A model generated the notes under the pieces. That model was not told the DNA's origin. It did no database searches and was given only the letters and a program-made list of their open reading frames with translations. 64,000 nucleotides of DNA, from the NCBI GenBank assembly GCA_037442205.1, contig JBBIQS010000039.1:6102-70101 (forward strand), given 5' to 3'. Of the stretch, positions 2,700-58,378 are shown in pieces. Each line of letters starts with the position of its first letter. The stretch's first letter is position 1. The stretch comes from Myxococcales bacterium. GTDB lineage: Bacteria > Myxococcota > Myxococcia > Myxococcales > UBA5297. The translations under genes were made by a program, and so were the position numbers.

Positions 2700-4097
<1,398 letters not shown>

Positions 4098-7570: not shown

Positions 7571-7595
7571 GCCGCCGCCGGGCTAAGCTCTGACC

Positions 7596-8396: not shown

Positions 8397-8459
8397 GCTC
8401 GCTTTGCTGGGGGCCCCCCGAAATACCGGCGGCGACGGCGGGGCCGGTTTAGTGCCACA

Positions 8460-24297: not shown

Positions 24298-24330
24298 CGC
24301 CCCGAGCTCCCGGCGCGATCGGCCTCTCCC

Positions 24331-25026
24331 ATGGCGCTGCCGTCCCGCGCTGAGATCCTGAACTTCATCGCCGCCCGCGAGGGTCTGGAGAAGACCCTCG
24401 AGCGCTTCCCCGGCGTCACCCGCGAGCAGCTGCGCGCGGTGCTGCGCGACGCGGCGGTGCTGCTGCTGGCCGAGGAGCAGGGCGTCGAGGAGCAGCCGGA
24501 CGAGAAACCGCTGGCGCCGCTGCGCGAGCAGAAGGTTTCGCCGCCAGCTCCCGCTGCCGCCGTTCCCTCCCCGCATCGCCCGGTACCTGAGCCGGCCGCT
24601 GAGACGGCTGCTGGCGAGGGCGCCAAGCGGCTCAAGCTCTACTCCGACGGCGCCGCCCGCGGGAACCCCGGACCGGCGGGCGCGGGCGCGGTGCTGATGA
24701 AGCAGGACGGCACCCTGGTCGCCAAGCTCGGCAAGTTCCTGGGCACCCAGACCAACAACGTGGCCGAGTACACCGCGCTGATCCTCGGCCTCGAGACCGC
24801 TCTGCGGCTGGGCGCCGACGAGATCGACGTCTTCGCCGACTCCGAGCTGCTCATCCGCCAGCTGGAGGGCGTCTACAAGGTCAAGAGCCCCGGGCTCAAG
24901 CCGCTCTACGACCAGGTCAAGCTGCTGCTCCGCCGCTTCCAGCTCGTGCGCCTGCAGCACGTGCCTCGCGAGAAGAACAAGCTCGCCGACGAGATGAGCA
25001 ACCGCGCCATCGACGAGAAGATGTAG
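24331..25026 (+). CDS. RNase H type-1 family protein with an N-terminal extension of about 90 aa
   Basis: The C-terminal domain reads LYSDGAARGNPGPAGAGAVL...NNVAEYTALILGLE...DSELLIRQL...REKNKLADEMSN, covering the DEDD catalytic positions. The N-terminus is a helical domain plus a Pro/Ala linker. Confidence 0.85.
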   Translation: MALPSRAEILNFIAAREGLEKTLERFPGVTREQLRAVLRDAAVLLLAEEQGVEEQPDEKPLAPLREQKVSPPAPAAAVPSPHRPVPEPAAETAAGEGAKRLKLYSDGAARGNPGPAGAGAVLMKQDGTLVAKLGKFLGTQTNNVAEYTALILGLETALRLGADEIDVFADSELLIRQLEGVYKVKSPGLKPLYDQVKLLLRRFQLVRLQHVPREKNKLADEMSNRAIDEKM

Positions 25027-36953: not shown

Positions 36954-37379
36954 ATGAAGCGGATCGGCGGCGGAAGCACGGTGCATGGCGGCTACTACTG
37001 GAACCTGAAGGGCTGGGACATCGCCGCCGTCCAGGGCGAGGTGGGCCGGCTGCCCGGGAATCAGGCGGACACGTACCTCCACGTGCCGCTGCCGGCGATG
37101 CTGGTCCTGGTGCCGGTGTTGGGCGCGGCCTACGCCCTCTTCCTGCCGGCGGCGGGGATCGCGATGGCGGTTTGGGGCGCGGGCAAGAAGCTGGGCGTGG
37201 TGGGCAAGGCGGCGGTCGAAGAACTCGCCGCCACGGTGAGCCCGACCTGGCGCCCGGGCGAAGCGCACTTCGCCAGCAAGCCGGACAGGAACCAGGCTGG
37301 CGACAAGGCGCGCGATCCCTCGCTCGAGAAGTTGCAGAAGGAGCTCGAGCAGAAGCGCCACTCGGAGAAGAAGAGCTGA
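36954..37379 (+). CDS. Small membrane protein, unknown family (paralog 1)
   Basis: The 141-aa ORF has GGAGG about 9 nt upstream. It shares GGYYWN..W...AVQGEVG, a hydrophobic stretch of about 30 aa, and KKLxxVG....LAATVSPxWRPGEAxFAxKPD with the next ORF. Confidence 0.75.
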   Translation: MKRIGGGSTVHGGYYWNLKGWDIAAVQGEVGRLPGNQADTYLHVPLPAMLVLVPVLGAAYALFLPAAGIAMAVWGAGKKLGVVGKAAVEELAATVSPTWRPGEAHFASKPDRNQAGDKARDPSLEKLQKELEQKRHSEKKS

Positions 37380-37431
37380 CCGCTCGCTTCACGAGCGACC
37401 TCGACGGCCGACCTCGGCCAGGAGACGAGCC

Positions 37432-37878
37432 ATGACGCGCTACCACGGCGGCACCAAGGTTCTGGGCGGGTACTACTGGAACATCTCGAGCTGGGAGCTG
37501 GTCGCGGTGCAGGGCGAGGTCGGGACCCTGCGGGCCGCTTCCGAGGAGACCTTCCTGCGGCTACCACTTCCGGTGTTGCTGCTGGTCATCCCGCTGATGG
37601 GGGCGCTGTTCGCCTTCTTCCTGCCGGCACTGGGCTTCGCGATGGTGACCTGGGGGCTGGGCAAGAAGCTGGCCCAGGTCGGGCGCCAAGCGATGCAGCA
37701 GCTGGCGGCCACGGTCAGCCCGGCGTGGCGCCCGGGCGAGGCCAACTTCGCCGGCAAGCCCGACGAGACGAAGGAACAGGGTCGGTCGGGCGAGGCTTCG
37801 CTCGAGAAGCTCAAGCAGGACATCGAGGAGCGCCGCCGCCTGGAGGCGGAGAAGGAGAAGAAGGACGAGCAGAGCTGA
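37432..37878 (+). CDS. Small membrane protein, unknown family (paralog 2)
   Basis: The 148-aa ORF has a GGAG RBS. In my ungapped hand alignment, 64 of its first 111 positions are identical to the preceding ORF. Confidence 0.75.
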   Translation: MTRYHGGTKVLGGYYWNISSWELVAVQGEVGTLRAASEETFLRLPLPVLLLVIPLMGALFAFFLPALGFAMVTWGLGKKLAQVGRQAMQQLAATVSPAWRPGEANFAGKPDETKEQGRSGEASLEKLKQDIEERRRLEAEKEKKDEQS

Positions 37879-37906
37879 GCGGCAGCTCCTCGGATTCGCC
37901 GGCGGC

Positions 37907-37940
37907 GGGCGGGCCTCTCAGGGTCCGCCCTTCGTGTTTG
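37907..37940 (+). terminator. Terminator hairpin between the convergent paralog-2 gene and the response-regulator gene
   Basis: GGGCGGGCC (37907-37915) pairs with GGTCCGCCC (37922-37930), including one G-U pair, around a 6-nt loop. TTCGTGTTT follows. Confidence 0.45.
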
Positions 37941-37944
37941 CCGC

Positions 37945-38601
37945 TCAGGGATCGACGCGGATCACGCCCATCTTCAGGGCGATGCGCACCAGGTCGGTGC
38001 GGTTGTGGGCGTCGAGCTTCTCCATCACCCGCTCGCGGTGGCTCATCGCCGTCTTGACGCTGATTCCCAGCGTCTCGGCGACCTCCTTGTTGCTCTTGCC
38101 CTCGGCCACCAGCTTGAGGACCTGCTTCTCGCGATCGGTGAGCGATTCGTAGAGGTCGGACTTCTCGGCCTGCGCCGGCCTGGCCAGCTCTTCCATTGCC
38201 TCGCGCGCCACCTGCGGATCGAGCACCAGCCCGCCGGCATGGGCGCCGCGGATGGCGTCGGCCAGCGCCGAGCCGGCGGCCTTCTTCAGCACGTAGCCGC
38301 TCACTCCGATCTTGAGGAAGCGCCGCACGTACTCGCGATCCTCGTATTGGGTGAGCACGACGATCTTGGTGTTGGGCCGGTCCTTCTTGATCTGCAGGGC
38401 GGCCTCGAGGCCTCCCAGGCCCGGCATGTGGATGTCCATCAGCACCACGTCGGGACCGACCTTGGCCACCTGCTCCACCGCGGCTTGGCCGTCGGCGACC
38501 TCGGCCACCACCTCGATGTCCGCGGTGGCTGCCAGCAGCGCCTTGAGTCCCTCGCGCAGGATGCCGTGGTCGTCGGCGATGAGGACGCGGATCTTAGCCA
38601 T
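37945..38601 (-). CDS. NarL/LuxR-family response regulator
   Basis: The receiver domain shows RVLIADDH...DVVLMDIHMPG. The C-terminal LuxR HTH reads LTDREKQVLKLVAEGKSNKEVAETLGISVKTAMSHR. Confidence 0.95.
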   Translation of the reverse strand: MAKIRVLIADDHGILREGLKALLAATADIEVVAEVADGQAAVEQVAKVGPDVVLMDIHMPGLGGLEAALQIKKDRPNTKIVVLTQYEDREYVRRFLKIGVSGYVLKKAAGSALADAIRGAHAGGLVLDPQVAREAMEELARPAQAEKSDLYESLTDREKQVLKLVAEGKSNKEVAETLGISVKTAMSHRERVMEKLDAHNRTDLVRIALKMGVIRVDP

Positions 38602-40435
38602 GGGGCGCCTCCTTCGGGACCGGCACGCGGATGGCCACCAGGCATCCTTGCCCGGGCGCCGACTCGATCCTCACCTCGCCTCCCATCAGCTCGACCCTCT
38701 CGCGAATCCCCAGCAGCCCCCAGCCTCGCCCGTCCTTGCCAGGAGCGGCAAGCGAGGACACCTCGAAGCCGCGGCCGTCGTCCTCGATGTCGATCGCCAG
38801 AAGCCCGTCGCTGAGTGCGCACTGGATGAGCACGCTCTCGGCCCGGGCATGCTTGGCGATGTTGGTGAGCGTCTCCTGCACCGCCCGGAAGATGGCGATC
38901 TCCAGCTGCGGCGGCAGCCGCTCGTCCATTCCCTCCGCCTCGAAGCGCACCACCACTCCCTGCCCCTTGAGCACCCGCTCGGCATACCAGCGCACCGCCG
39001 AGCGCAGCCCCAGGTCGTCGAGCACCGAGGGGCGCAGGTCGACGATGAGCCGGTGGACCTCGTCGAGCGTGTGGACCGCCAGCTCCTTGGCCTCCGCCAG
39101 GCTCTGGCGCGCCTTCCCCGGCGGCTCGCCCGAGACCGCCGACTCCAGCCTCATCGTCAGCGCCGCCAGGCTCTGGGTGGTCTCGTCGTGCAGCTCGCGG
39201 GCGATGCGCTTGCGCTCGTCCTCCTGGGCGCCGATCACCTTGTGCAGCAGCTGCGCCCTCCCCTCCTCGCGCCGCTTGAGCTCGGCGTTGGCCTTCTCCA
39301 GCTCAGCAGTGCGCTCGAGCACCCGCGCCTCCAGCTCGCGGTTGCTCTTCTCGACCGTCTCCAGGGAGCGCTTGAGCGCCAGCCGCATCCTCTCGAAGGA
39401 CGCCCCCAGCCAGCCGATCTCGTCGTTCCCGACCGGCGGGATGGGCGAGTCGAGCTCGCCCTTGGCGATCCGCTCGGCGGAGGCCGCCAGGGTCGCCAGC
39501 GGCCGGGTGACGCTGCGCGCGGCGCCCCGGGCCAGCAGCAACCCGAGGACGAGCAGGCTCAGCGCGACCAGAGACCCGTTGTGCGACAGCGCGGTCGAGA
39601 AGGCGAAGGCCTCGCTCTCGGGCTGGCGGACGACGACGCCCCAGGGGATGGCGGGCAGCGGGGCGAAGGCCATCACCTCGGGAGTGCGCGGCGCCGATGC
39701 GCCCTCCTGCTGATGGCAGCCGTGGCAGGCGCCGGAGGTGGTGCGGTGGTCGCGGATCAAGCTGGCGAGGAACTGGGCGTGGTCGCTCTCGAGGAACAGG
39801 CGGCCTTCGTCGGTGCTGGCGATGACGGTCCCCTTGCCGTCCACCAGGTCGATCGACTCGCTGGCCGCGAGCTGGAAGCGCCTGAGCAGCGCCGGCAGGT
39901 GCGGCCCGAGGGGGTCGATGACGCCGCCGACCAGGCCCAGGACTTCCCCGGACCAGTTCTTGGCTGGCAGGAGGACGTAGAGGCGCCGGCCGCCGTCGGC
40001 GTCCGGGATCAGGTCGCTGATCAGCGGGCGGCCGTCCTTGACCACCTGGGCGAGCGGCGCCGCCAGCGGCCGGGACTTGGGCTCCATGTACGAGATCCGC
40101 CCCTGGGCGTCGGCGAGGAAGGTCTCGTCGATGACCAGGTGGCGGCGCACGAAGGCGTAGCGCAGCTCGGCCCGCGTGGCCTCGGAGGCCTGATCGAACG
40201 TCGAGCTGCCGGCGATCTCCTGGAGCCGATCGACCTGCGCGGCAAGCAGCGAGGAGATCCGCTCGGCCACGCTCGAGGCCAGCACCTGCCGCTCCGAGAG
40301 CACCCGGCGCTCGGTCTCGCGGATCGACCAGGAGCCCAGGGCGGCCATCGCGGCCAGCGGCGCCAGCAGGCCGAAGGCCACCAGCGACAGCAGGCGGACG
40401 CGGATCCGACCTCTCAGCGGCGTGGCCTCGCTCAC
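38594..40435 (-). CDS. Sensor histidine kinase: TM, periplasmic double-Cache-like domain with a CxxCH motif, TM, HAMP, HisKA_3, HATPase
   Basis: The 613-aa ORF has its GTG start overlapping the upstream stop as GTGA. The H-box is RIARELHDETTQSL (NarX/DegS type). HATPase motifs are present, and SGACHGCHQQ lies between the two TM helices. Confidence 0.9.
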   Translation of the reverse strand: MSEATPLRGRIRVRLLSLVAFGLLAPLAAMAALGSWSIRETERRVLSERQVLASSVAERISSLLAAQVDRLQEIAGSSTFDQASEATRAELRYAFVRRHLVIDETFLADAQGRISYMEPKSRPLAAPLAQVVKDGRPLISDLIPDADGGRRLYVLLPAKNWSGEVLGLVGGVIDPLGPHLPALLRRFQLAASESIDLVDGKGTVIASTDEGRLFLESDHAQFLASLIRDHRTTSGACHGCHQQEGASAPRTPEVMAFAPLPAIPWGVVVRQPESEAFAFSTALSHNGSLVALSLLVLGLLLARGAARSVTRPLATLAASAERIAKGELDSPIPPVGNDEIGWLGASFERMRLALKRSLETVEKSNRELEARVLERTAELEKANAELKRREEGRAQLLHKVIGAQEDERKRIARELHDETTQSLAALTMRLESAVSGEPPGKARQSLAEAKELAVHTLDEVHRLIVDLRPSVLDDLGLRSAVRWYAERVLKGQGVVVRFEAEGMDERLPPQLEIAIFRAVQETLTNIAKHARAESVLIQCALSDGLLAIDIEDDGRGFEVSSLAAPGKDGRGWGLLGIRERVELMGGEVRIESAPGQGCLVAIRVPVPKEAPHG

Positions 40436-41049
40436 GGGCCCTCCTTGCGCACGCTGCCGGCCATGCGCAGCAGTTGCCCGAGCCCGCCACTGCCTCGCAG
40501 CGCCAGTCGGCTGCCGTTCTGCTCCCAGGTCAGCTGGTGCCAGACCTCTCCGTCTCCCCCGCGCAGCAGCGTAAGCCGGCCCTCGAGCTTGCCGACCTTG
40601 AGCGGCCCCTCCTCGACCTTGGTCGCCTGGGGAAGCATGTGCTCCGGGATCTCGGCCGCTCCGCCGATCGTCTGCGCCAGGTAGAGAGCCGGCCCCGCCG
40701 ACTCGCGCGACTGGAATTCGAGGACGACCACTGCCGGGCGCCCCCCGGTGGCGCGCACCACCTTTGGAGGCCAGGCGAGCGACTGCGGGAAGTAGGCCGG
40801 CAGCAGCAACCGCTGGCGAAGCCGCCGCTCCAGGTCGGCGACGCTCGAATAGAGCCGGCCTTCCGCGGGCTCGGTGAGCAGCCGCGGGAGCGCACCCAGC
40901 CCCTCGAGCGAGGCAGTGGCCGCCGTCATCACCAGCGCGAGCGTGACCAGCGCACGGGCGAGCGCGCCGGCGCCGCCTTCGCGCCCGGCCCGCACCGGCG
41001 CCCCTGAGGGCGGCACGGAGGTCGGCTTGGCCAGGCTCGGAGCGTCCAT
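40432..41049 (-). CDS. Single-pass membrane protein with a periplasmic domain (205 aa), unknown function
   Basis: I trimmed the start to ATG 41049, 2 nt after the upstream stop. The TM helix is ALARALVTLALVMTAATA. A mixed domain follows (LLLPAYFPQSLAWPPKVV...LTWEQNGSRLALRG). Confidence 0.65.
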   Translation of the reverse strand: MDAPSLAKPTSVPPSGAPVRAGREGGAGALARALVTLALVMTAATASLEGLGALPRLLTEPAEGRLYSSVADLERRLRQRLLLPAYFPQSLAWPPKVVRATGGRPAVVVLEFQSRESAGPALYLAQTIGGAAEIPEHMLPQATKVEEGPLKVGKLEGRLTLLRGGDGEVWHQLTWEQNGSRLALRGSGGLGQLLRMAGSVRKEGP

Positions 41050-41051
41050 GG

Positions 41052-42011
41052 TCAGACCACGAAAAAGAGCAGGACCGCCAGCGACAGACCGGTGAGGACC
41101 AGCCGCAGCGCCTCGAAGGGGACCGGCCGCGGCTCCGGGCGATCGATCAGCCGCCGGCAGCGCTCCTCGATGGCCATCGCGCGGGCGCGCGCCAGGAACG
41201 GCTCCCCGGCGAAGTCCGGGCTGCGCTGGAAGCTGTGCGTGGCGCAATAGAGCTTCAGCAGCCCGGAGGCCACCCCCAGCCGATCGCCAGTCGCGCCGGC
41301 GGCGACCTCGTCCGCCCTCCTCTCTGCGTCGCGGGCGATGGCCCGCACCATGACGTGCAGCACCGGGTTGAAGGCCTGCAGGGTTCGCGCGGCGAGCAGG
41401 GCCCAGCTCAGGAAGGGATCGCGCTCCTTCAGGTGGCCCAGCTCGTGGGCCAGCGCCGCCGCCAGCTCCCGCTCGTCGAGCGCCGCCAGGGCACCGCGCG
41501 AGACGATCAGCCGCCCCCGGACCGCCCCGGCGCACATCAGGAAGGGAGGCTCGGCGTCGAGGAGGACGATCTCAGGCGGCCGGACGCCCAGCGAATGGCA
41601 GAGAGAATCGACCGCCGCTGGTAGCGCAGGATCGATCGGCGCCTGGCCGAAGGGCAGCGCGCGCTCGAACAGCTGTTCGCGCAGGAAGGGAACGGCGTCG
41701 CGCAGGAAGAGCAGCACGCCCAGGGAGGCGAAGGCCGCCAGCCACAGGTGGAAGAGGGGCAGGCCGAAGAGCTCGACCTGGGCCCAGCTGACTCCGGCGA
41801 AGAGGGCCCGCTCGTCGAGGAACCACTCCTGGTGCCGCTGCGGTGCCAGCAGCTCGAACAGCGGCAGCACCAGCAGCGGGAAGGCCAGCGACAGCAGCCG
41901 GAAGCGGACCTTCTGCCGTGGGTCCTCGACGCGCCAGCGGCGCAACAGCGCCTCGACCACCAGCGCCGCCACCAGGGCGTGAAAGATGGCCTGGGCGATG
42001 AGCTGGGCCAC
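41052..42011 (-). CDS. M56/M48-type (BlaR1-like) integral-membrane zinc metalloprotease; protease domain only
   Basis: The 319-aa ORF has multiple TM helices and an ALAHELGHLKERD HExxH motif in the BlaR1/HtpX context. It has no C-terminal sensor domain. Confidence 0.85.
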   Translation of the reverse strand: MAQLIAQAIFHALVAALVVEALLRRWRVEDPRQKVRFRLLSLAFPLLVLPLFELLAPQRHQEWFLDERALFAGVSWAQVELFGLPLFHLWLAAFASLGVLLFLRDAVPFLREQLFERALPFGQAPIDPALPAAVDSLCHSLGVRPPEIVLLDAEPPFLMCAGAVRGRLIVSRGALAALDERELAAALAHELGHLKERDPFLSWALLAARTLQAFNPVLHVMVRAIARDAERRADEVAAGATGDRLGVASGLLKLYCATHSFQRSPDFAGEPFLARARAMAIEERCRRLIDRPEPRPVPFEALRLVLTGLSLAVLLFFVV

Positions 42012-42012
42012 C

Positions 42013-42741
42013 CTACTCCTTCGGCCGGCTGGCGCCCTCGATCCTCGCCAGCTCGAGCGGATGCTCGTGTTCCATGCGCTCCCGGCTGATCTTGCCGGTG
42101 AAGATCGCCGTATCGAAGGGGAACACGTCGGGGTTGAGGTGGGCGTTGTAGATGTGCCAGACGATGACCACCAGGAAGGCCATCAGGCCCTCGTTGCTGT
42201 GGGCCATCTTGGCGGCGGGAATCACCTCGCCGGGCAGCAGCCTTGCGACGGCGATCGGGAAGAACAGGATCAGCCCGGTGACCGCCATGATCAGCGCCCC
42301 GAACACCAGCCCCCAGTACTCGAACTTCTGCCGGTAGTCGAAGCGGTCGTACCTGGGCGGCGACTCGCGGAAGCCCAGGTAGTACTTCAAGGTGTCGATG
42401 GCGTCGCGGAAGTCCTGGCGCTTGGGGACGATGGCGAAGCTGGCCCGCCGCTGCGCCAGCTGCCAGATGTTGAGCGCGAAGTGGAACACCACCAGCGCCA
42501 CCATGAAGAAGCCACAGGCCCGGTGGACCTGGCGGGCGAAGGTCACCCCGCCCAGCGAGGCCATCAGCGCCTTGGCCCAGCCGCTGTCGTAGAACTTCTG
42601 CGGGAAGCCGGTCAGGCTCAACAGAGTGAAGCTGGTGAGCATGGCCACGTGCTCCAGCCGCTGGCGCAGCGAGAAGCGCGTCAGGAAGGGCTCGGTGCTC
42701 GGGCGGGCCATCGCGACGGCCTGATCAGAGGGCGTGCTCAT
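42013..42741 (-). CDS. Dihaem b-type cytochrome (FdnI/HydC-like membrane subunit)
   Basis: I trimmed the start to ATG 42741, which overlaps the upstream stop as ATGA. The protein has 4-5 TM helices with conserved His residues ([28 protein letters not shown]...WHIYNAH). Confidence 0.85.
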
Positions 42742-43832
42742 CGGTTCACCACCACTCGCCACAGGTGCAGCAGGATCTGCAGCACCAGCCCGCCGATCAT
42801 GAAGGGGATGACCAGCGAGTAGAAGACCTTCACCCCGTACACCAGCGGCGCCTTGGTGAGGCTGGGCTCGTAGTGGCTCATCCAGGCGGCGGGGAAGCTG
42901 GCCCCGGAGTCGGGGTGGCACCTCTGGCAAGTCTTGACCAGGTTGGCGGCCATCACCCGCGAGTCCGGCGAGCGGACCTTGGCGATGTCGTGGACCCCGT
43001 GGCAGTCGGTGCACAGCGCCACCACCGGGTTGACCCCGCCCCTCTGCGCCGACTGCAGCGAGGCGGTCATCCCGTGGAAGTCGGAGAGGTAGGTCTGCAG
43101 CACCTTGGTCGACAGGCCGTACCTCTTCATCATCGGCTCGTTGGTGTGGCAACTGCCGCACATCTCCGGGGTCTTGAGCCGCCAGGCGCCGGCCTTGGGG
43201 TTGGCGATGTCGTGCGAGCGGTGGCAGTCGGTGCAGGTGGGCACGTCGGCGCTCTCGCCGCTGAGCAGCGCCTGGCCGTGCACCGACTTCACGTAAGAGG
43301 CGTTCACCGCCTCGTGGCACTTGGAGCAGGAGCGGCTGATGCGGGCCCGCGGCTCGGCGGCGCGGCCGACGTCGTGGGCCCCGTGGCAGTCGGCGCACAC
43401 CGCCGCCCCGAGGTTGCCGTTGTCGCGGGCGGCGTTGTGGACGCTGTCCAGGGTGCGCTGGTAGTTGGCGAAGTGGCACTGCTTGCACTGCTCGGAATAG
43501 TTGATGGTCAGCTCGCGGCGGGTCTTGAAGGCCTTGGGGTCGTGGCCGCCGGAGCTGCCCTTCAGATCGGCGTGGCAGTCGGTGCAGCTCAGGTTCTCGC
43601 CGTGTATCGAGCGGGCGAAGAGCTGGGCGTCGACGAACAGGCTCTGGGGCTCACCCCCTTCGAGCGCGACCTCCAGCCCCTGATCGCCGTGGCACTCCAG
43701 GCAGTCCTCGGCCGCCGCCGGCTTGCCGGCCGCCGGAGGGTCGGCGGGCCGCGCGCCCGCGTCGGGGGCCTGGGCGCGCGCCGAAGCGGCCGCCAGAGTC
43801 GCGACGAGCAGGCCCAGCAGACTCAGCCTCAT
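42738..43832 (-). CDS. Nine-haem c-type cytochrome with a C-terminal membrane anchor
   Basis: I trimmed the start to ATG 43832, with GAGGAGAGGAG upstream. It has a signal peptide ([20 protein letters not shown]). The 9 CxxCH motifs are CLECH, CTDCH, CKQCH, CADCH, CSKCH, CTDCH, CGSCH, CTDCH and CQRCH. A C-terminal TM helix follows. Confidence 0.9.
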
Positions 43833-43966
43833 GGACTGCTCCTCTCCTCGAAGTCGCCCTCCGGTCCGCGGCGCAGTCGCTTCGCCCCAGGCCCGGTCGC
43901 TGCCTCGACCTCGGAACGGGGGCGCGTCGCGATAAGCGTCGGCGGCGCCCGAGGCCTCCCTGGAGT

Positions 43967-43985
43967 AGCAAATCGGCGATTTGCT
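43967..43985. promoter_or_regulatory. Perfect 8-3-8 palindrome (candidate operator) in the divergent cytochrome-operon/uspA intergenic region
   Basis: AGCAAATC-GGC-GATTTGCT, read directly. It lies about 135 nt upstream of the cytochrome operon ATG. Confidence 0.35.
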
Positions 43986-44168
43986 GTCACCCCAACCACA
44001 CGGCAAAAGCCATGCTTCTACGGCACGTTAGGAAGCCTACGGCGAGCTTGGCCTGTCGCCCTGCGGCCTGCCGGCGCACTTCGGTGGCGCCGCCGGTCGG
44101 GATAGCGAATCGATCGCTCGGCGCGGCCGTCGGCCGGCGCCTAGCGTTGAGGAGGGACGGAGGCGGTC

Positions 44169-44594
44169 ATGGGCTTCGAGCGGATCCTGGTGGGCGTCGA
44201 CGGCTCCGAGGCCTCGCTGCGGGCGCTGCGGTTGGGCGTCGAGATCGCCGCCAGGTTCGGGGCGAAGGTGACGCTGGTGACCGTCATCCCGCCGCTGCTG
44301 CTGCCCAACGACGCCTACGCGCCCGGGGTCGGGGCGATCGAGCAGGAGCACCGCCGGCATGCCGAGCAGGTGCTGGCTGAAGCGAGCGAGCTGCTGGAAC
44401 CGAAGGTTGAGGTCGACAAGGTCCAGCTCTTCGGCGCCCCGGCCGAGTCGCTGGCTCAGCTCGCCCAGTCTGACGAGGTGGGGATGGTGGTGGTCGGCAG
44501 CCGCGGGCGCAACGCGGTGATGCGGGTGCTGGTGGGCAGCGTCTCCGACCGGCTGGTCCACATCAGCCCCAAGCCGGTGCTGATCGTCCATTGA
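44169..44594 (+). CDS. Universal stress protein (UspA family)
   Basis: The protein reads MGFERILVGVDGSEAS...VVGSRGRNAVMRVLVGSVSDRLVHISPKPVLIV. Confidence 0.9.
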   Translation: MGFERILVGVDGSEASLRALRLGVEIAARFGAKVTLVTVIPPLLLPNDAYAPGVGAIEQEHRRHAEQVLAEASELLEPKVEVDKVQLFGAPAESLAQLAQSDEVGMVVVGSRGRNAVMRVLVGSVSDRLVHISPKPVLIVH

Positions 44595-44832
44595 GCCGGC
44601 GCCGGCCTGCCCGGCCGCGCACCGTGGTGGCCGCCCACCGCTTATGCGACAGGGCGGTCCGGCTGTTTCACCACGGCGCACCACAGCGCACCGCTCTGAA
44701 ACATTGCGCAACCTCGCAGCGCTCGCCCGCTCGCCCGCCGTCGCCGGCAATGTCCTGTGGTTCTCACTACTTGGCGGCGCCGCTCCGCGCGGCATGCGCC
44801 GTGCTCAGTGACCACCGAATCCCGAAAGCTCC

Positions 44833-45210
44833 ATGCGCCAGCCAGCCCACATGCCGACCGAGGTGCCTGAGGTCGATATCGCGTTCTCGGGATATCCGCC
44901 GGAAGCGGGTCCGGCGGTCGAGCGGCAGGCCCAGCTGCTGCGGGCGCTGGGCCATCCGGTGCGGCTGCAGTTGGTGCGGGCCCTGGCCGAAGCCCCGCTC
45001 TCGGTGAGCGCGCTCTCGCAGCGGCTCGACCTGCCCCAGAGCCGGGTCTCGCAGCAGCTGTCCCTGCTGCGCCACCAGAACCTGGTCTCGGCCATCCGCC
45101 GCCAGGGATTCGCCATCTACCACCTGGCCGAGCCGCACCTGCGCGCGCTGGTGGCCTGTCTCGACGAATGCTGCCCGCCCACGGCGACGGCAGCGGGGAG
45201 TGCCCGATGA
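44833..45210 (+). CDS. ArsR/SmtB-family transcriptional regulator
   Basis: The winged HTH reads LLRALGHPVRLQLVRALAEAPLSVSALSQRLDLPQSRVSQQLSLLRHQNLV. Its stop overlaps the next start as ATGA. Confidence 0.85.
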   Translation: MRQPAHMPTEVPEVDIAFSGYPPEAGPAVERQAQLLRALGHPVRLQLVRALAEAPLSVSALSQRLDLPQSRVSQQLSLLRHQNLVSAIRRQGFAIYHLAEPHLRALVACLDECCPPTATAAGSAR

Positions 45211-47396
45211 GCACGATGAGCCGCAGGACCTTCCTCAAGGTCGCCGGAGGGTCGGTGCTGGGCGGCCTGGCGGCGAGCGCCGGCCTGTTCGGCCGCGCGG
45301 TGAGCGCCCAGGAGCTGAGCGGGATCGTCCCCGACCGCGTGGTCCCCAGCTTCTGCGAGCTGTGCTTCTGGAAGTGCGGGGTGCTGGCCTACGTCAAGGA
45401 CGAGAAGGTCTACAAGATCGAGGGCAACCCCAAGCACCCGCTCTCCAACGGCATGCTCTGCCCGCGCGGCGCGGCGGCAGTGGGCGCGCTCTACGACCCC
45501 GACCGGCTGCGCCAGCCGCTGCTCAGGGTCGAGGAGAAGGGCGCCCAGAAGTGGAAGCCGGTCAGCTGGGAGGAGGCCCTCGACTTCACCGCCAGGCGGC
45601 TGACGGGGATCAAGGCCAAGTACGGCGCGGGCGCGATCGCCGTCTTCTCCCACGGCCACGGCGGCGGCTTCTTCAAGACGCTGCTCAAGGGCATGGGCTC
45701 GGGCAACGTGGTCGCCCCCAGCTACGACCAGTGCCGCGGCCCGCGCATGACCGGGTTCAACCTCACCTTCGGCCTCGACCCCAATTCGATCGAGACCATC
45801 GACATGGCTCACTCCAGGTGCATCGCCTTCCTCGGCACGCACCTGGGCGAGAACATGCACAACACCGCGGTCCAGGACGTCTCCGCCGCCAACGCCAACG
45901 GCGCGGTGTTCATCACCGTCGACCCGCGCTTCTCGATCATCGCCAGCAAGTCCAAGTACTGGCTGCCGATCAAGCCCGGCACCGACACCGCGCTGCTGCT
46001 GGCCTGGGCCCACGTGCTGATCAACGAGGGGCTGTACCAGAAGGAGTTCATCGAGAAGAACGCCATCGGCTTCGACCAGCTCAAGGAGCACCTGCAGGAT
46101 AAGACCCCGGAGTGGGCCTGGCTGCAGACCGGCATCGAGCCCTCGCTGATCCGCGAGACCGCGCGCGAGCTGGCCCGGGCCGCCCCAGCCTCGATGGTCA
46201 ACCCCGGCCGCCACGTGGTCTGGTACGGCAACGACGCGCAGCGCTCGCGGGCGGTGGCCATCGTCAACGCGCTGCTCGGCAACTGGGGCAAGAAGGGCGG
46301 CTTCTACCTGCCCGAGACCTACCCGGTCCCCGAGCTCAAGGGGCCCAAGCCGCCGCCGAGTGAGCACTTCCACCCGCGCCAGAAGTTCCCGTTCGCCGGC
46401 GCCGACTGCGCCTACGACGTCTGCGACGCCTCGCTCTCCAAGCCCAACGACCCGGCCAACGTGAAGGCCTGGCTGGTCTATGGCTGCAACGTGCCGCTGA
46501 CCCTGCCCAACACGGAGCAGACCATCGCCGCGATGAAGGAGCTGGAGCTGGTGGTGGCCATCGACACCATGCCCGCCGAGGTCACCGGCTGGGCGGACGT
46601 GATCCTGCCCGAGAACACCTACCTCGAGCGCTTCGACGAGCTGCATAACCCGCCCTTCCGCGTCCCCTACGTAGCGGTGCGCCAGCCGGCGGTGGCCTCG
46701 CTCTACGACACCAAGCCCGGCTGGTGGATCGCCAAGGGCCTGGCGGAGCGGATGGGTCTGGCCGAGTACTTCCCGTGGAAGGACATCGAGGAGTACCTCG
46801 ACAAGCGCTGCCAGGCGGTGGGCATCGACTTGGCCACTCTGAAGAAGGAAGGCGTGATCGCCCGCGAGCCCAAGGGCATCTACGACGACTCGCCGGAGAT
46901 GACCTTCGCCACCCCGAGCAAGAAGATCGAGCTCTACAGCCAGCAACTGGCCGACGCCGGGCTGGACCCGATCCCGCGCTACGAGCCGCCGGAGGAGCCG
47001 CCTGCAGGCTACTTCCGGCTGCTCTTCGGCCGGGCCCCGGTCCACACCTTCACCCGCACCACCAACAATCCCCAGCTCAACGAGATCTTCCCCGAGAACG
47101 AGCTCTGGATGAACGGCTCGATGGCGCGCTCGCTGGGCCTCAAGAACGGCGACCGGGTGATGCTGGAGAACCAGGACCGGGTGAAGGTCGGGCCGATCAA
47201 GCTCAAGGTCACCGAGCGCATCCGCCAGGACTGCGTCTACATGGTCCACGGCTTCGGGCGCGAGGACGCGCGGCTGCGCAAGAGCTACCGGCGCGGGGCC
47301 GCCGACTCGCGGCTGATCACCCGCATCAAGCGGGACCCGCTGATGGGCGGCACCGGGATGAACGTCAACTTCGTCTCCGTCTTCAAGGAGGGCTGA
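45207..47396 (+). CDS. Tat-exported molybdopterin oxidoreductase catalytic subunit (PsrA/PhsA/TtrA-like)
   Basis: The twin-arginine signal is MSTMSRRTFLKVAGG. The N-terminal 4Fe-4S motif is CELCFWKC...CPRG. The protein has the length and collinearity of the DMSO-reductase superfamily. The substrate cannot be assigned from sequence alone. Confidence 0.9.
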   Translation: MSTMSRRTFLKVAGGSVLGGLAASAGLFGRAVSAQELSGIVPDRVVPSFCELCFWKCGVLAYVKDEKVYKIEGNPKHPLSNGMLCPRGAAAVGALYDPDRLRQPLLRVEEKGAQKWKPVSWEEALDFTARRLTGIKAKYGAGAIAVFSHGHGGGFFKTLLKGMGSGNVVAPSYDQCRGPRMTGFNLTFGLDPNSIETIDMAHSRCIAFLGTHLGENMHNTAVQDVSAANANGAVFITVDPRFSIIASKSKYWLPIKPGTDTALLLAWAHVLINEGLYQKEFIEKNAIGFDQLKEHLQDKTPEWAWLQTGIEPSLIRETARELARAAPASMVNPGRHVVWYGNDAQRSRAVAIVNALLGNWGKKGGFYLPETYPVPELKGPKPPPSEHFHPRQKFPFAGADCAYDVCDASLSKPNDPANVKAWLVYGCNVPLTLPNTEQTIAAMKELELVVAIDTMPAEVTGWADVILPENTYLERFDELHNPPFRVPYVAVRQPAVASLYDTKPGWWIAKGLAERMGLAEYFPWKDIEEYLDKRCQAVGIDLATLKKEGVIAREPKGIYDDSPEMTFATPSKKIELYSQQLADAGLDPIPRYEPPEEPPAGYFRLLFGRAPVHTFTRTTNNPQLNEIFPENELWMNGSMARSLGLKNGDRVMLENQDRVKVGPIKLKVTERIRQDCVYMVHGFGREDARLRKSYRRGAADSRLITRIKRDPLMGGTGMNVNFVSVFKEG

Positions 47397-47400
47397 GCCG

Positions 47401-47937
47401 ATGGCCCGCTACGGCATGACGGTCGATCAGCGGCTGTGCGTCACCTGCAACGCCTGCGTGATCGCCTGCAAGAACGAGAACAAGGTCCCGGAGGGCGCCG
47501 CCCGCTGCTGGACGGCGCAGATCGAGCGCGGGAGCTTCCCCACCGTCTCGCTGGAAACGCGCTCCGAGCGCTGCAACCACTGCGAGAACGCCCCCTGCGT
47601 CTCGGCCTGCCCCACCCGCGCCAGCCACTACCTGGCCGGCGGGCTGGTGGCGGTGGACAAGGACAAGTGCGTCGGCTGCAAGGCCTGCGTCACGGCCTGT
47701 CCCTACGAGGCCCGCTACATCCATCCCGCAGGCTACGTGGACAAATGCTCCTTCTGCCCGCACCGGGTGCAGAAGGGCCAGGAGCCGGCCTGCGTGGCGG
47801 TCTGCCCCACCGACGCCCTGACCTTCGGCGATCTCGACGACCCGCACTCCAAGGTCCACCGCCAGCTGCAGACCCGGACCTTCAAGGTCCTCAAGGAAGA
47901 AGAGGACACCCGCCCCAAGGTCTTCTTCCTCACCTGA
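47401..47937 (+). CDS. 4Fe-4S ferredoxin electron-transfer subunit (PsrB/NrfC-like)
   Basis: It has four Cys clusters (CVTCNACVIAC, CNHCENAPC..C, CVGCKACVTAC, CSFCPHR...C). Confidence 0.9.
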   Translation: MARYGMTVDQRLCVTCNACVIACKNENKVPEGAARCWTAQIERGSFPTVSLETRSERCNHCENAPCVSACPTRASHYLAGGLVAVDKDKCVGCKACVTACPYEARYIHPAGYVDKCSFCPHRVQKGQEPACVAVCPTDALTFGDLDDPHSKVHRQLQTRTFKVLKEEEDTRPKVFFLT

Positions 47938-47949
47938 CCGGACGACGCC

Positions 47950-49203
47950 ATGAGCTCACAAACTCTCGACTTGCGCGCTGCGCTCTCCCAGGTGCCCAAA
48001 CTATTCCTGGTGACCGACGGCGATCCCAAGCACACCGCCCGCGGCAAGCTGCTGCTGCGGGGCCTGCTGGCCGTCGCTCTGGCCGGCCTGGTCTCGGGGA
48101 TCATCGCCTTCCTCTACGGGCACCACGTGATGGGCACCAACTCCGAGATCCCCTGGGGCGTGCTCATCGCCAGCTACACATTCTTCGTGGCCAACACCAG
48201 CGGGCTGTGCCTGGTCGGCTCGCTGGGGCACGTCTTCGGCTACAAGCTCTTCGAGCCGGTGGCCAAGAAGGCGCTCCTGCTGGCGCTGATCAACCTGCTG
48301 TTGGGCTTCGCGGTCATCGGCAGCGAGCTCGAGCGGCCGCTCCTGCTTCTGAAGATGGTTCTGCTCTCCCCCAACCCCACCTCGCCGATCTGGTGGATGG
48401 GCACGCTCTATGGGCTCTACCTCTTCGTCATCCTCTTCGAGCTCTACTTCCTGCTGCGCGAGGATCACCGGCGGGCCAAAGTGGCCGGAATCGTCGGGGT
48501 GATTGCGGCGGTGGCGGCGCACACCAACCTGGGCGCAGTGTTCGGGCTGTCCCACGCGCGCGCATTCTGGGCTGGGCCGTTCTTCCCCATCTTCTTCCTG
48601 GCCTGGGCACTGGCCTGCGGCGCGGCGCTGCTGGCGCTGATGGTCTACTTCCAGGACTACTTCTCCCGCGCCGACAAGCAGGTGCGCGAGGAGCACAAAC
48701 CGCTGCTGGCGGCGCTCGGCCAACTGCTGGCGCTCTTCCTGTCGATCGTGGCGGTGCTGGCGGCCTGGAAGCTCATCTCCGACGTCTACGCCGACCACCG
48801 CGGGCTGGCGGTCATCGGCTGGGCGCGGATGACCGGACCGCTCTTCTTCTCAGTGTGGATCTTCGAGATCTTCCTGGGGCTGGTGATCCCGCTGGCGCTG
48901 CTGTTGGGGCCCAAGCGCAACCAGCCGCGGACCATCGCCATGGCGGCGGCGCTGCCGATGCTGGGCGTCTTCGTGATGCGCTACAACTTCGTCTACGCCG
49001 GCCAGATGCTCTCGCTGAAGCCGATCGTCGGGCACCTGGGCGAGGTCATCACCTACGGCCCGCCGTTCAAAGGCAACCCCGCCGGCTTCCTCTCGTACAC
49101 GCCCTCGATCGTCGAGGCGCTCATCGTCGCCGGCGCCGTGGCCGGCGTGATCCTGCTCTACGTCGCCGGCACCAAGCTGCTCGAGCCGGCCAAGGAGGCC
49201 TGA
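47950..49203 (+). CDS. NrfD/PsrC-family integral-membrane quinol-interacting subunit
   Basis: The 417-aa ORF has about 10 TM helices. Its position after the A and B subunits is the canonical PsrABC order. Confidence 0.85.
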   Translation: MSSQTLDLRAALSQVPKLFLVTDGDPKHTARGKLLLRGLLAVALAGLVSGIIAFLYGHHVMGTNSEIPWGVLIASYTFFVANTSGLCLVGSLGHVFGYKLFEPVAKKALLLALINLLLGFAVIGSELERPLLLLKMVLLSPNPTSPIWWMGTLYGLYLFVILFELYFLLREDHRRAKVAGIVGVIAAVAAHTNLGAVFGLSHARAFWAGPFFPIFFLAWALACGAALLALMVYFQDYFSRADKQVREEHKPLLAALGQLLALFLSIVAVLAAWKLISDVYADHRGLAVIGWARMTGPLFFSVWIFEIFLGLVIPLALLLGPKRNQPRTIAMAAALPMLGVFVMRYNFVYAGQMLSLKPIVGHLGEVITYGPPFKGNPAGFLSYTPSIVEALIVAGAVAGVILLYVAGTKLLEPAKEA

Positions 49204-49204
49204 G

Positions 49205-49786
49205 ATGGCCGAGACCACTCAGCTCGCCGAGTCGCAGCCGAAGCGGCCGGCGCCCTACTGGAACTCCTACGTCGCCGGCTTCGGCCTGGGGCTGGTGCTG
49301 CTGGCCTCCTACGTGCTGGCCGGCCGCGGCCTGGGGGCCTCCGGCGCGGCCACGCGCATCGCCAGCTACGCGGTGCACAAGGTCGACGCCATGGCCCATG
49401 GCGGCACCGAGGCCGAGGGGCACACCGTCGCCCGGGCCAACGCCTACATGGCGCCCTACGTGAAGGGCCCGGCCGATCCCTTCGACGACTTCCTGGTCTA
49501 CCTGATGGTCGGAATACTCTTCGGCGGATTCGCCAGCGGCTGGTCCGCCGGGCGAGTCTCCTTCGAGATCGTCAAAGGCCCGCACGCCACCAACAAGAGG
49601 CGGCTGGCGCTGGCGCTGCTGGGCGGCTTCATCTCCGCCTACGGAGCGCGGCTGGCGCGCGGCTGCACTTCGGGGCAAGCGCTGAGCGGCGGGGCCACGC
49701 TGGCGCTGGGGAGCTGGGCATTCATGCTCGCGGTCTTCGCCGGCGGCTACGCGCTGGCCTACTTCCTCAGGAAGGAGTGGCTCTGA
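49205..49786 (+). CDS. YeeE/YedE-family sulfur-compound transporter, half-size unit 1
   Basis: The hydrophobic 193-aa protein carries the LARGCTSGQALSG motif typical of YeeE/YedE. Confidence 0.85.
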   Translation: MAETTQLAESQPKRPAPYWNSYVAGFGLGLVLLASYVLAGRGLGASGAATRIASYAVHKVDAMAHGGTEAEGHTVARANAYMAPYVKGPADPFDDFLVYLMVGILFGGFASGWSAGRVSFEIVKGPHATNKRRLALALLGGFISAYGARLARGCTSGQALSGGATLALGSWAFMLAVFAGGYALAYFLRKEWL

Positions 49787-50379
49787 TGGAACCGCTCGCT
49801 CCAGTCACCAAGGTCTTCGAGCTGGGCGCCAACGCCGAGGCGGTGCTGGCCATGCTGCTCGGCTTCGGCTTCGGCTTCATGCTCGAGAAGGGCGGCTTCG
49901 GCAGCTCGAAGGTTCTGGCCGGCCAGTGGTACGGCTACAACTTCGCGGTGCTGCGGGTGATGTTCACCGCGATCATCACCAGCATGGTCGGCCTGTTCGG
50001 CCTTCGCTACCTGGGGGTGGTCAACTTCGAGCTGGTCTACGTCAACGAGACCTTCCTCTGGCCGCAGATCGTCGGCGGCTTCATCTTCGGCATCGGCTTC
50101 GTGATCGGGCAGTTTTGCCCTGGGACGGCGCTCGCCGCCTGCGCCACTGGGAAGATCGACGCCATGGTCTTCACCGCCGGCTTCTGGATCGGGATCGTCG
50201 CCTTCTCGTTCAGCTTCCCGCTGTTCTCCAGGTTCTATGACAGCTCGAGCATGGGCCGGATGCTGGTCTCCGACTGGCTGCACCTGCCGGCGGGAGTGGT
50301 GGTCTTCCTGGTAGTGCTGATCGCGCTGGGAGCCTTCGCCCTCACCCATTTCCTCGACAAGAAGCTGGCCAAGAGCTGA
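49786..50379 (+). CDS. YeeE/YedE-family sulfur-compound transporter, half-size unit 2
   Basis: ATG 49786 overlaps the upstream TGA by 1 nt, and AGGAAGGAG lies 9 nt upstream. The motif is GQFCPGTALAACATG. Confidence 0.85.
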   Translation: MEPLAPVTKVFELGANAEAVLAMLLGFGFGFMLEKGGFGSSKVLAGQWYGYNFAVLRVMFTAIITSMVGLFGLRYLGVVNFELVYVNETFLWPQIVGGFIFGIGFVIGQFCPGTALAACATGKIDAMVFTAGFWIGIVAFSFSFPLFSRFYDSSSMGRMLVSDWLHLPAGVVVFLVVLIALGAFALTHFLDKKLAKS

Positions 50380-50391
50380 GTCGGAGGGACC

Positions 50392-51006
50392 ATGTTGACC
50401 CGCAACCGCATCGTCTTCGCCGTGGTCTTCGCGCTGGCTGGCGCTGGCGTGGCCGCGCTGTCCTTCAAGGGCGACCCGCCGCGGGAGCTGAATGCCGCCT
50501 TCCACGCCGACAGCGCCAAGCAGGTGAGTCCCGCCGAGCTGGCCAGCTGGATCATCGAGGGCCGGCGGGACTTCACTGTGGTCGACACCCGGCCGGTGGA
50601 GAACTACCAGGCCAGCCACGTGCGCGACGCGGTCAGCTGCGGTAGCTGCCACCAGTCGAAGCAGCAGGCGCGCGAGTCGGAGACCTTCGTCGATCTCTCG
50701 AAGAAGATCGTGCTCTACGCCCAGTCCGACGCCGACGAGATCGTGCTGCCCAAGATCCTGGTCGAGAACCCGCGGCTGCTGAGGCTGTCGGGAGGCTTTG
50801 AAGGTTGGCAGCAGGAGATCCTGGCGCCGGTGAAGCAGGAGGGCCTGACCAGCGATGAGCAGGTCCTCGACGCACGCCGCCGCGAGGCGCGACGCGCCTT
50901 CTTCTCCGGCGAGACGCCCAGCGCCCCGGCACCGGTGAAAGCGCCCGTCGAGCCGGTTCGCCGCGGCGGTCCCCATAAGGCGGCAGCAGCCGCCGAGGGC
51001 TGCTGA
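50392..51006 (+). CDS. Membrane-anchored rhodanese-homology-domain protein lacking the catalytic Cys but carrying CGSCH
   Basis: It has an N-terminal TM anchor. The rhodanese fold signals are VSPAELASWI...FTVVDTRP...SHVRDAV...IVLYAQSD...LSGGFEGW. The active-site position reads YA rather than YC. Confidence 0.75.
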   Translation: MLTRNRIVFAVVFALAGAGVAALSFKGDPPRELNAAFHADSAKQVSPAELASWIIEGRRDFTVVDTRPVENYQASHVRDAVSCGSCHQSKQQARESETFVDLSKKIVLYAQSDADEIVLPKILVENPRLLRLSGGFEGWQQEILAPVKQEGLTSDEQVLDARRREARRAFFSGETPSAPAPVKAPVEPVRRGGPHKAAAAAEGC

Positions 51007-53722: not shown

Positions 53723-54091
53723 CGTCCACCGCCGTTCCCGCGTCGTCCGGGGCGAGCCGCAGCAGCCGCAGGTCGGCCCACGCGGGCCCCTCTACCCGCT
53801 TGCCGTCGCGATCGAACTTCGAGCCATGGCAGGGGCAGATCAGCAGCCCGCCCTGCTCGCGGTCGATCCGGCATCCCAGGTGCGCGCAGCGCGAGGAGAA
53901 TGCCCGCACCTCCTCGCCCGCCCGGACGAGAATCACCTCCCCATGGAAGCTGATCCCGTCTGCGGCCGGCTTGGGAATCGTCAGCCGCTTGCTCTCTTCG
54001 CGTCGGCGCCGGGCGGTTCCCAGCAGGCCCGCGGCCCCGGCCAGCAGCGCCGAGAGCCCGGCCATCGCCCCGCGCAAGAGATCCCGACGCG

Positions 54092-54098
<7 letters not shown>
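53709..54098 (-). CDS. Tat-exported Rieske [2Fe-2S] protein
   Basis: The twin-arginine segment is LTRRDLLRG. The Rieske boxes are CAHLGC and CPCHGS. I prefer the GTG at 54098, which has GGGAG 9 nt upstream. The longest ORF begins at GTG 54125. Confidence 0.85.
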
Positions 54099-55888
<1,790 letters not shown>

Positions 55889-56086
55889 GTCCAACTCCTC
55901 GCCTGGAACGATTCGCAACGGTTTGAGACTGTCGTTCTCCAAAGGATTCACCGGGCAGGCTATCCGAAAGCCGCAGTCGTTTCCTGGCCTTGCGCCGCCG
56001 GAGAGCCTCCCGCGGAGCCCGCCGCTTCTCAACAGACGACCGGCCGCCGATCTGGGCGGCCGGAGGCCGAGTACCCGGAGGGCTGT

Positions 56087-58219: not shown

Positions 58220-58378
58220 GAGCGCTCTTCTACCGCGCGCCGACGGGCTCGGCCACCGATTGTTCTGCCAGAGCCGCCTGGTCGAAGCCGCGTTTTCCGC
58301 AGCCGCCGAGGGCCCGCCCGCGCTTTACGGCGGCGGCCCTTCGCAGCGATGATGTGCGGCCCTTTCCGGAGGTTCCCC

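Follow-up and report, generated by a model that had tools for sequence, protein, structure and literature searches.

The electron acceptors open to metal- and sulfur-respiring bacteria are set by their inner-membrane quinol:cytochrome oxidoreductases; to our knowledge, the sensing that decides which quinol-oxidoreductase branch to deploy is poorly understood beyond a few Geobacter regulators. A six-gene block in a 64,000-nucleotide stretch of a Myxococcales genome (assembly GCA_037442205.1, contig JBBIQS010000039.1, positions 6,102 to 70,101; hereafter the window, with positions counted from its first letter) raises the question of whether such an enzyme can be wired to a sensor of its own. 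The block encodes a nine-haem cytochrome c (cytC9), a membrane cytochrome b (cytB), a zinc metalloprotease (M56), a single-pass membrane protein, a sensor histidine kinase (HK) and a response regulator (RR). A preliminary description had taken it for a translationally coupled operon that links a split CbcL-like quinol dehydrogenase to a BlaR1-type protease and a two-component system, and had proposed a self-regulating redox or electron-acceptor sensing unit. Our analysis indicates that the cassette is probably a self-contained quinol:cytochrome module that senses redox state or a ligand and regulates its own expression.

Re-translation of the minus-strand block (37945-43832) gave six reading frames with no break between them, and the genes, their frames and all five junctions agree with the preliminary description. 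The start of cytB overlaps the stop of cytC9 as ATGA, a single nucleotide separates cytB from the M56 gene (TAG-G-GTG) and two nucleotides lie between the M56 gene and the gene for the single-pass protein (TGA-CC-ATG), which in turn overlaps the HK gene as GTGA; the HK and RR genes overlap by 8 nt (ATGGCTAA). In a window of about 70% GC, third codon positions have a GC fraction of 0.85-0.99 in the frame assigned to each gene, and the frame shifts at every junction. For HK and M56 no start codon exists in frame farther upstream than the one called, so that their junctions cannot be looser than given; a good Shine-Dalgarno sequence precedes cytC9 (GGAGAGGAG), and the RR gene has GAAGGAGG as its Shine-Dalgarno sequence. 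Start-codon choice, which had been named as a way in which the coupling might fail, is therefore firm for HK and M56, but it is ambiguous for the single-pass protein, the only gene with a soft start: its ATG at 41049 lacks a Shine-Dalgarno sequence, and an in-frame GTG at 40995, following AGGGG, would widen the gap to 56 nt. A scan of 37600-44400 found no terminator-like site inside the operon. The only such site is a GC-rich hairpin directly after the RR stop, with a T-run on the plus strand only, which likely marks the end of the transcription unit and is shared with the convergent gene. An Rfam scan of 37000-45500 matched no regulatory RNA family.

The gene order recurs widely, and many bacteria of soil and sediment carry the cassette. 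We scanned an alignment of M56 homologues against one genome per GTDB species and searched all open reading frames (ORFs) of the resulting loci with the six window proteins using phmmer. All six genes are present at 48 species-representative loci and, wherever the contig is long enough, they lie on one strand in the order cytC9-cytB-M56-partner-HK-RR, where the partner is the single-pass protein. The carriers are mostly Anaeromyxobacteraceae, including many metagenome-assembled genomes (MAGs) of that family and the cultured Anaeromyxobacter oryzae, A. oryzisoli, A. terrae, A. soli and A. sp. PSR-1; several Acidobacteriota MAGs (Vicinamibacterales, Holophagales) have the same order. Independent gene calls agree with it in three loci. 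The modal junction in these relatives is a 4-nt overlap at four of the five boundaries, M56/partner included, and a spacing of 23-26 nt at cytB/M56. Two loci were left out of account. The frame-shifted L061 (Eisenbacteria) was not interpreted, and L086, labelled Bacteroidales, lies on a contig of 68% GC, unlike Bacteroidales, and is probably mis-binned, so that it is not evidence for Bacteroidota and was not counted as a third phylum.

A second survey, anchored on cytC9 in metagenome contigs, gave 49 loci with a judgeable downstream region. Twelve of these have cytC9-cytB-M56(-partner-HK-RR). Seven have cytC9-cytB-HK-RR and lack M56 over at least 3.5 kb of upstream sequence, another seven have the same four genes with too little upstream sequence to judge M56, and in seven more the M56-partner pair lies upstream of cytC9-cytB-HK-RR. 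RR-HK is found on the opposite strand in three loci, cytC9-cytB is followed by PsrA-PsrB in one, and in 12 the cytochrome genes are accompanied by something else. HK-RR and/or M56 genes stand beside the cytochrome genes in 36 of the 49 loci, in four arrangements and in hosts of 44-74% GC. A linkage that outlasts rearrangement argues for function, and judged by these comparisons the linkage of the cytochrome pair to signalling genes is real and old. The conserved core is the cytochrome pair together with HK-RR. M56 and its single-pass partner always occur as a pair, which is upstream in some loci and absent in others. The adjacency proposed in the preliminary description is thus not unique to this genome, and the link to the sensor and regulator is conserved; the protease holds its place in the six-gene order of the 48 genomes, but it is movable and dispensable rather than an obligate link of the operon.

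CbcL of Geobacter sulfurreducens (GSU0274) serves extracellular electron transfer as an inner-membrane quinol oxidase or quinone reductase, and the FdnI family comprises dihaem b cytochromes. According to its published layout, CbcL has nine CX2CH motifs within the N-terminal half of the chain, plus a HydC/FdnI-like membrane half (PMC6295460). The window proteins correspond to these two halves. CytC9 matches Pfam multihaem cytochrome c families, and among 140 homologues all nine CxxCH motifs, eight further His residues and Met235 are each at least 94% conserved; the 107 split homologues have exactly nine CxxCH motifs without exception. CytB matches the prokaryotic cytochrome b561 family PF01292 (E = 1.5e-16) and, under the curated cutoff, the formate dehydrogenase gamma model TIGR01583 (E = 1.3e-15), and six His residues (H31, H73, H87, H181, H196 and H227) are invariant in 127 homologues. 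A search with the cytC9+cytB concatenate returned single-chain proteins of 616-662 residues, plus one of 779, whose alignments cover 91-98% of the concatenate with 39-43% identity. Nine CxxCH motifs stand at the aligned positions in most of these fused relatives, and three carry 10-11. CytB is collinear with their C-terminal half and the alignment crosses the split junction; the break sits in a short cytoplasmic linker past the anchor helix, and the division into two ORFs is kept in more than 100 homologues.

This end-to-end alignment with fused nine-haem/cytochrome b proteins bears out the earlier designation as split CbcL-like, which is justified at the level of architecture, CbcL itself having been compared by its published layout. 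Like CbcL, MtoC and MtrH, the pair combines a periplasmic N-terminal part with nine CxxCH motifs, a membrane helix and a HydC/FdnI-type b cytochrome with conserved His residues. It differs in that those proteins are one polypeptide, whereas here there are two, coupled through ATGA and split in the cytoplasmic linker. It also differs in company: the split form is tied to HK-RR and often to the M56 pair, whereas the fused homologues that we inspected have neither, and those in a Planctomycetes MAG and a JGI metagenome are surrounded by other cytochrome genes, the signalling set being absent. A proposed role of H356 in the cytC9 anchor helix as a haem b ligand was dropped, as this residue is invariant in 15 close homologues and below 90% in the wider set. 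Two fused CbcL-like proteins, P0122 and P0125, have two additional CxxCH motifs after the cytochrome b domain, at the very C-terminus (residues ~630-660; 11 in total), which implies a further, putatively haem-binding tail on the opposite side of the membrane domain.

The HK and RR domains all score above the curated cutoffs, HAMP-HisKA_3-HATPase_c in the kinase and a receiver with a LuxR/GerE helix-turn-helix domain in the regulator (Response_reg, E = 8.7e-28; GerE, E = 4.5e-21). Hydropathy places the transmembrane (TM) helices of HK at residues 15-33 and 283-301, which makes the Cache domain between them periplasmic. The isolated sensor domain matches dCache_1 at 46.6 bits (gathering cutoff 45), and a profile of 16 orthologous sensor domains matches the dCache ligand-binding domains of PctC and PctA (E = 4.8e-5). 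As a single sequence the domain found nothing meaningful in the PDB, PctC being reached by the profile alone, and a single-sequence AlphaFold2 model had a mean pLDDT of 35.9, from which no structural conclusion was drawn.

The membrane-proximal Cache module of HK contains a CHGCH motif, a putative covalent haem c site, on a segment that falls between the aligned blocks of the PctC/PctA profile alignment. A CxxCH motif occupies this column in 54 of 75 unique HK orthologues (~72%). In 53 of these 54 the column of His219, about 18 residues upstream, holds Cys (42) or His (11), and 18 of the 21 kinases lacking the motif have neither residue there. Such co-variation is expected of a distal axial ligand and argues against a chance motif; it suggests that the dCache_1 domain of HK bears a covalently bound, axially ligated haem c. 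The idea of redox sensing gains support from this predicted site, which the preliminary description had missed.

A covalent haem in a Cache domain has a precedent. The sCache_heme family (DUF3365/Tll0287, PF11845), to which GSU0582 and GSU0935 belong, consists of Cache sensors with covalent haem c, and a 2026 preprint (PMC12889525) regards it as the first case of a covalently attached cofactor in a Cache domain; Tll0287 has Cys/His axial haem ligation. HK resembles this family in having an extracytoplasmic Cache fold with CxxCH on an inserted segment and, in most orthologues, a co-varying Cys. It differs in being a double Cache domain related to PctC and PctA, with the motif in the membrane-proximal module, and in the frequency of the motif, which is ~72% among the HK orthologues as against ~99% in sCache_heme (PMC12889525). 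Searched with the isolated HK sensor domain, PF11845 gave no match even at E <= 10, and dCache_1 alone was found. The HK domain belongs to a different Cache family, so that its putative haem site looks like a separate acquisition.

The protease scores 49.9 bits against PF05569 (Peptidase_M56; cutoff 31) and 37.1 bits against PF01435 (Peptidase_M48), and it also matches HtpX models. Hydropathy predicts TM helices at residues 1-19, 39-57, 84-102 and 301-319; the ~200 residues between the third and the fourth bear the HExxH motif and Glu230, and H189, E190, H193 and E230 do not vary among 19 homologues. The chain stops at residue 319, directly past TM4. By its sequence features the protein thus is a BlaR1 protease domain without the extracellular sensor. 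BlaR1 and MecR1 are likewise four-TM zinc metalloproteases, in which HExxH and a Glu downstream of it lie between TM3 and TM4; here, the chain ends past TM4, the gene that follows specifies a single-pass protein of its own, whose beta-rich periplasmic domain is unrelated, and the pair sits inside a respiratory and two-component operon with no BlaI/MecI repressor. Pfam found no penicillin-binding (class D beta-lactamase-like) sensor domain in the protein, and the blaR1_generic NCBIfam model scored 17.9 bits against a cutoff of 400. Of the earlier label "BlaR1-type", the four-TM zinc-protease domain stands, but the penicillin-binding sensor and the BlaI-type repressor that would complete such a system are missing.

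The single-pass protein has, by hydropathy, one N-terminal helix followed by a periplasmic domain. A word-indexed search found eight relatives, two of which match DUF4245, and an exhaustive search with a profile yielded 365 clusters out of 1.84 billion representatives, nearly all of 170-200 residues. An AlphaFold2 model built from the eight-sequence alignment shows one helix and then a beta-rich domain (mean pLDDT 80.7; 10-residue block means of 87-95 over residues 61-200). Foldseek searches of the PDB and a viral library with this model gave no match below E = 0.001; the weak matches were to PsbP, RseB/MucB, DcrB and YpmB (best E = 0.016), and a PsbP/RseB/DcrB-like identity was rejected as a hint at most. 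We treat the protein as a putative periplasmic interaction or sensor domain.

A 318-bp intergenic region separates cytC9 from the divergent genes and contains a perfect 17-bp palindrome (Table 1) that is unique in the window, with a chance expectation of 0.13 even when three mismatches are allowed. It is flanked by GTGACA and TACTCC hexamers, and could be a candidate operator inside a candidate promoter. A sigma-70 promoter scan of 37600-44400 found none, such a scan being uninformative at 70% GC. K-mer enrichment over 53 non-redundant regions upstream of cytC9 in search of a shared regulator-binding motif found no universal motif and lineage-specific elements only. Some Anaeromyxobacter have, in many versions, a sigma70-like TTGGACA-N17-TGGTAGGA in this region, and in some the region carries GATCAATT; another group has ATCTGCTA. 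Six Acidobacteriota loci (L045, L048, L049, L056, L057 and L065) have TGGCA-N6-TTGC, which resembles a sigma54 -24/-12 element, just upstream of cytC9. The sigma factor to which the cassette is wired may differ between phyla.

The divergent genes encode a Usp protein, a PhsA/PsrA-like molybdopterin oxidoreductase, a PsrB-like iron-sulfur (FeS) protein and an NrfD-type subunit. With a Sulf_transp (YeeE/YedE-like) fragment and a rhodanese, the plus-strand cluster at 45168-51006 looks like a thiosulfate/polysulfide-type reductase locus, and it is possible that the divergent Usp and Psr-like genes are functional partners or co-regulated targets of the cassette. In one metagenome contig of 58% GC (L125, 3495-8277), cytC9-cytB is followed in line by close homologues of the window's PsrA (E = 2e-141) and PsrB, with an HK-RR pair upstream. 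This arrangement suggests a joint function of the cytochrome pair and the Psr/Phs-like enzyme. Most Anaeromyxobacter loci have an FeS-NrfD-GcvH-c7-GcvH cluster ahead of the cassette, which, taken with L125, makes a recurrent association with PsrBC-type modules likely.

Several further features of these neighbourhoods deserve mention. In L001-L003 (~1-8000) and ~35 other Anaeromyxobacter loci the genes before the cassette encode a HAMP-HisKA kinase, an archaemetzincin-like Peptidase_M54 protein and a sigma54 response regulator, followed by Fer4_11, NrfD, a GcvH-like protein, cytochrome c7 and a second GcvH-like protein; a metzincin within a two-component pair and GcvH-like proteins beside an NrfD module are both unusual. 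Usp genes recur beside cytC9-cytB or its fused relatives, with three matches after cytC9-cytB in L130 (1927-7985) and one after Crp/FNR-type regulators in L084 (9752-10189), in addition to that of the window. The Psr/Phs-like cluster of the window is flanked by two different b/c cytochromes. The second of these large inner-membrane cytochromes (51008-53791, minus strand) is a single ORF of ~900 residues with an N-terminal PF00033 cytochrome b/b6-type domain and ~11 CxxCH motifs in its C-terminal half. A PAS/sigma54-activator gene on the same strand (54092-56086) lies just downstream of it in window coordinates, a combination that we take to recall Geobacter CbcBA with its sigma54-dependent regulator. 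Large WD40-repeat proteins are encoded at 8397-11999 (plus strand), where the repeats are fused to a Ser/Thr protein kinase domain as is typical of Myxococcota signalling proteins, and at 56087-58324 (minus strand), and an RVT_3/RNase H-like ORF lies at 24298-25026.

Table 1. Positions of the cassette genes and associated features in the window (aa, amino acids)
Feature	Position	Strand	Details
RR, NarL/FixJ-type response regulator	37945-38601	-	218 aa; Response_reg + GerE
HK, sensor histidine kinase	38594-40435	-	613 aa; TM, periplasmic dCache_1, TM, HAMP, HisKA_3, HATPase_c
CHGCH, putative covalent haem c site in membrane-proximal Cache module	39713-39727	-	HK residues 237-241
His219, putative distal ligand of HK haem	39779-39781	-	~18 residues upstream of CxxCH
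Single-pass membrane protein, beta-rich periplasmic domain	40432-41049	-	205 aa; Pfam: no match
M56/M48-type four-TM zinc metalloprotease	41052-42011	-	319 aa; HELGH at 41433-41447
cytB, FdnI/HydC-type membrane cytochrome b	42013-42741	-	242 aa; PF01292
cytC9, nine-haem periplasmic cytochrome c	42738-43832	-	364 aa; signal peptide, 9 CxxCH, C-terminal hydrophobic TM anchor
GC-rich hairpin directly after RR stop	37907-37930	.	only terminator-like site in 37600-44400; T-run on + strand only
Perfect 17-bp palindrome GCAAATCG-G-CGATTTGC	43968-43984	.	136 nt upstream of cytC9 ATG
Divergent neighbours: Usp, PhsA/PsrA-like molybdopterin oxidoreductase, PsrB-like FeS, NrfD-type subunit	44169-49203	+	Pfam, NCBIfam
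Usp gene	44169-44594	+	divergent from cytC9
PhsA/PsrA-like molybdopterin oxidoreductase	45168-47396	+	best NCBIfam model PhsA, 467 bits, below cutoff

We hypothesize that the cassette combines a CbcL-like electron-transfer complex with a haem-bearing dCache HK and a NarL-type RR that adjust its expression, and with an accessory M56 pair, an account that we consider somewhat better than evenly supported. The six genes would form one transcription unit for a membrane electron-transfer complex and its dedicated envelope signalling system. CytC9, with nine periplasmic c haems and a single-helix anchor, and cytB would together be the two-subunit equivalent of the fused CbcL, MtoC and MtrH, and we infer that they form a complex carrying electrons between the menaquinone pool and periplasmic partners, in a direction that may be either that of a quinol oxidase or that of a quinone reductase. 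The dCache_1 domain would, in this lineage, sense the periplasm through a covalent haem c with Cys or His as distal ligand; with a haem c on HK the likeliest signal is redox state, or else a ligand of the haem such as NO (nitric oxide) or sulfide, and it could be reported by, or be in equilibrium with, the neighbouring cytochrome. HK would then phosphorylate RR, which would control the operon's own promoter and probably also respiratory genes nearby, in the window the divergent Usp/PhsA-like cluster. The M56 protein and the single-pass protein would correspond to a BlaR1-like protein split past the last helix, an accessory module that may either modulate the signal by regulated proteolysis or police the membrane cytochrome. 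The role of the protease is the least certain part of this model.

A number of observations weigh against this account or narrow it. About a quarter of the HK orthologues, including all Acidobacteriota versions examined, lack the CxxCH motif, so that haem sensing cannot be the universal input. At least seven loci keep cytC9-cytB-HK-RR without M56 and the single-pass protein, which shows that the pair is not essential to the core, and no BlaI/MecI repressor was found among the operon genes, the window neighbours or the genes called in four related loci. The other cassette loci do not share the palindrome and have the lineage-specific sigma70-like or sigma54-like elements instead.

One alternative, that the adjacency is meaningless and the signalling genes serve an unrelated envelope process, draws on the abundance of two-component systems in Myxococcota genomes. 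We strongly disfavour it and regard it as very improbable, because the partners are linked across at least two phyla, hosts of 44-74% GC and four gene orders, and because overlapping stop and start codons are conserved. If the linkage has a function, the cytochrome pair might still be mainly a sensory input, sampling the quinone pool or periplasmic acceptors and passing electrons to the HK haem, so that the whole cassette would be a multi-component electron-acceptor sensor controlling other respiratory operons. HK-RR accompany the cytochrome pair far more often than terminal reductases do, bare cytC9-cytB-HK-RR units exist, the putative haem c site of HK faces the same compartment as the nine-haem domain, and the other b/c cytochrome and the Psr/Phs-type complex of the window could do the bulk work. 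However, nine haems and a dihaem b cytochrome would make a costly sensor, the fused relatives occur in cytochrome-rich respiratory clusters without a kinase, and 12 loci have cytC9-cytB with no HK nearby, one being in line with PsrAB; the linkage is moreover kept by kinases that lack CxxCH. We consider a mainly sensory role unlikely.

A different question is what the protease pair does. It could be concerned with HtpX-like quality control or maturation, for example the removal of mis-assembled apo-subunits, leaving regulation to the two-component system alone. The matches to HtpX models and Peptidase_M48, the absence of a BlaI-type repressor from every locus inspected, and the relocation upstream or loss of the pair while cytC9-cytB-HK-RR stays would all fit such a role. 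Yet Pfam favours M56 over M48 (49.9 versus 37.1 bits), the four-TM topology ends where BlaR1 runs on into its sensor, the invariable partner with a periplasmic domain suits a sensor/transducer pair, and in the commonest arrangement the pair sits between the cytochromes and the kinase; a pure quality-control function therefore seems doubtful to us. An extension of the CbcL-like, autoregulated module that we favour would join all parts in a four-component redox-sensing system, in which a dCache HK with an independently gained haem c reads its partner cytochrome and a BlaR1-like split protease adds proteolysis without BlaI. We put this forward tentatively, as conceivable rather than expected. If it is true, haem-Cache sensors would have originated a second time, apart from sCache_heme.

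Every part of the cassette comes from a known family, and respiratory operons that have a two-component system of their own are familiar. In TtrSR-TtrBCA, TorSR-TorCAD and NarXL, respiratory genes have an adjacent dedicated two-component system, and as in those systems a periplasm-sensing kinase and a NarL-type regulator are encoded here beside the respiratory genes that they presumably control. Here, in contrast, the regulatory genes follow the structural genes within a single unit and are translationally coupled to them, a protease pair joins the set, and the sensor is probably haem-based rather than substrate-binding. LiaFSR and VraTSR also combine a HisKA_3 kinase and a NarL-type regulator in one operon with genes for small membrane proteins ahead of the kinase gene, but the accessory proteins here, an M56 protease and a DUF4245-like protein, are unrelated to theirs, and whereas LiaS is intramembrane-sensing, HK has a large periplasmic domain.

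Full-text literature searches found no published description of the cassette, although such an absence is not proof. Three aspects, of which these searches likewise returned no account, appear to be new: the conserved association of a split CbcL with HK-RR and, in part of the loci, the M56 pair; a dCache_1 domain whose haem is probably covalent and has a co-varying ligand; and a BlaR1-type protease domain with a separate periplasmic protein and no BlaI. The cassette offers a widespread, compact and genetically tractable case of an oxidoreductase hard-wired to its own sensor, present in cultured Anaeromyxobacter. The M56 pair lets one ask whether BlaR1-type proteases signal via partners other than BlaI repressors. 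If HK binds haem c, Cache domains with a covalent cofactor would reach from the single-Cache Tll0287 family to the far larger dCache_1 family, and the trait would have arisen more than once.

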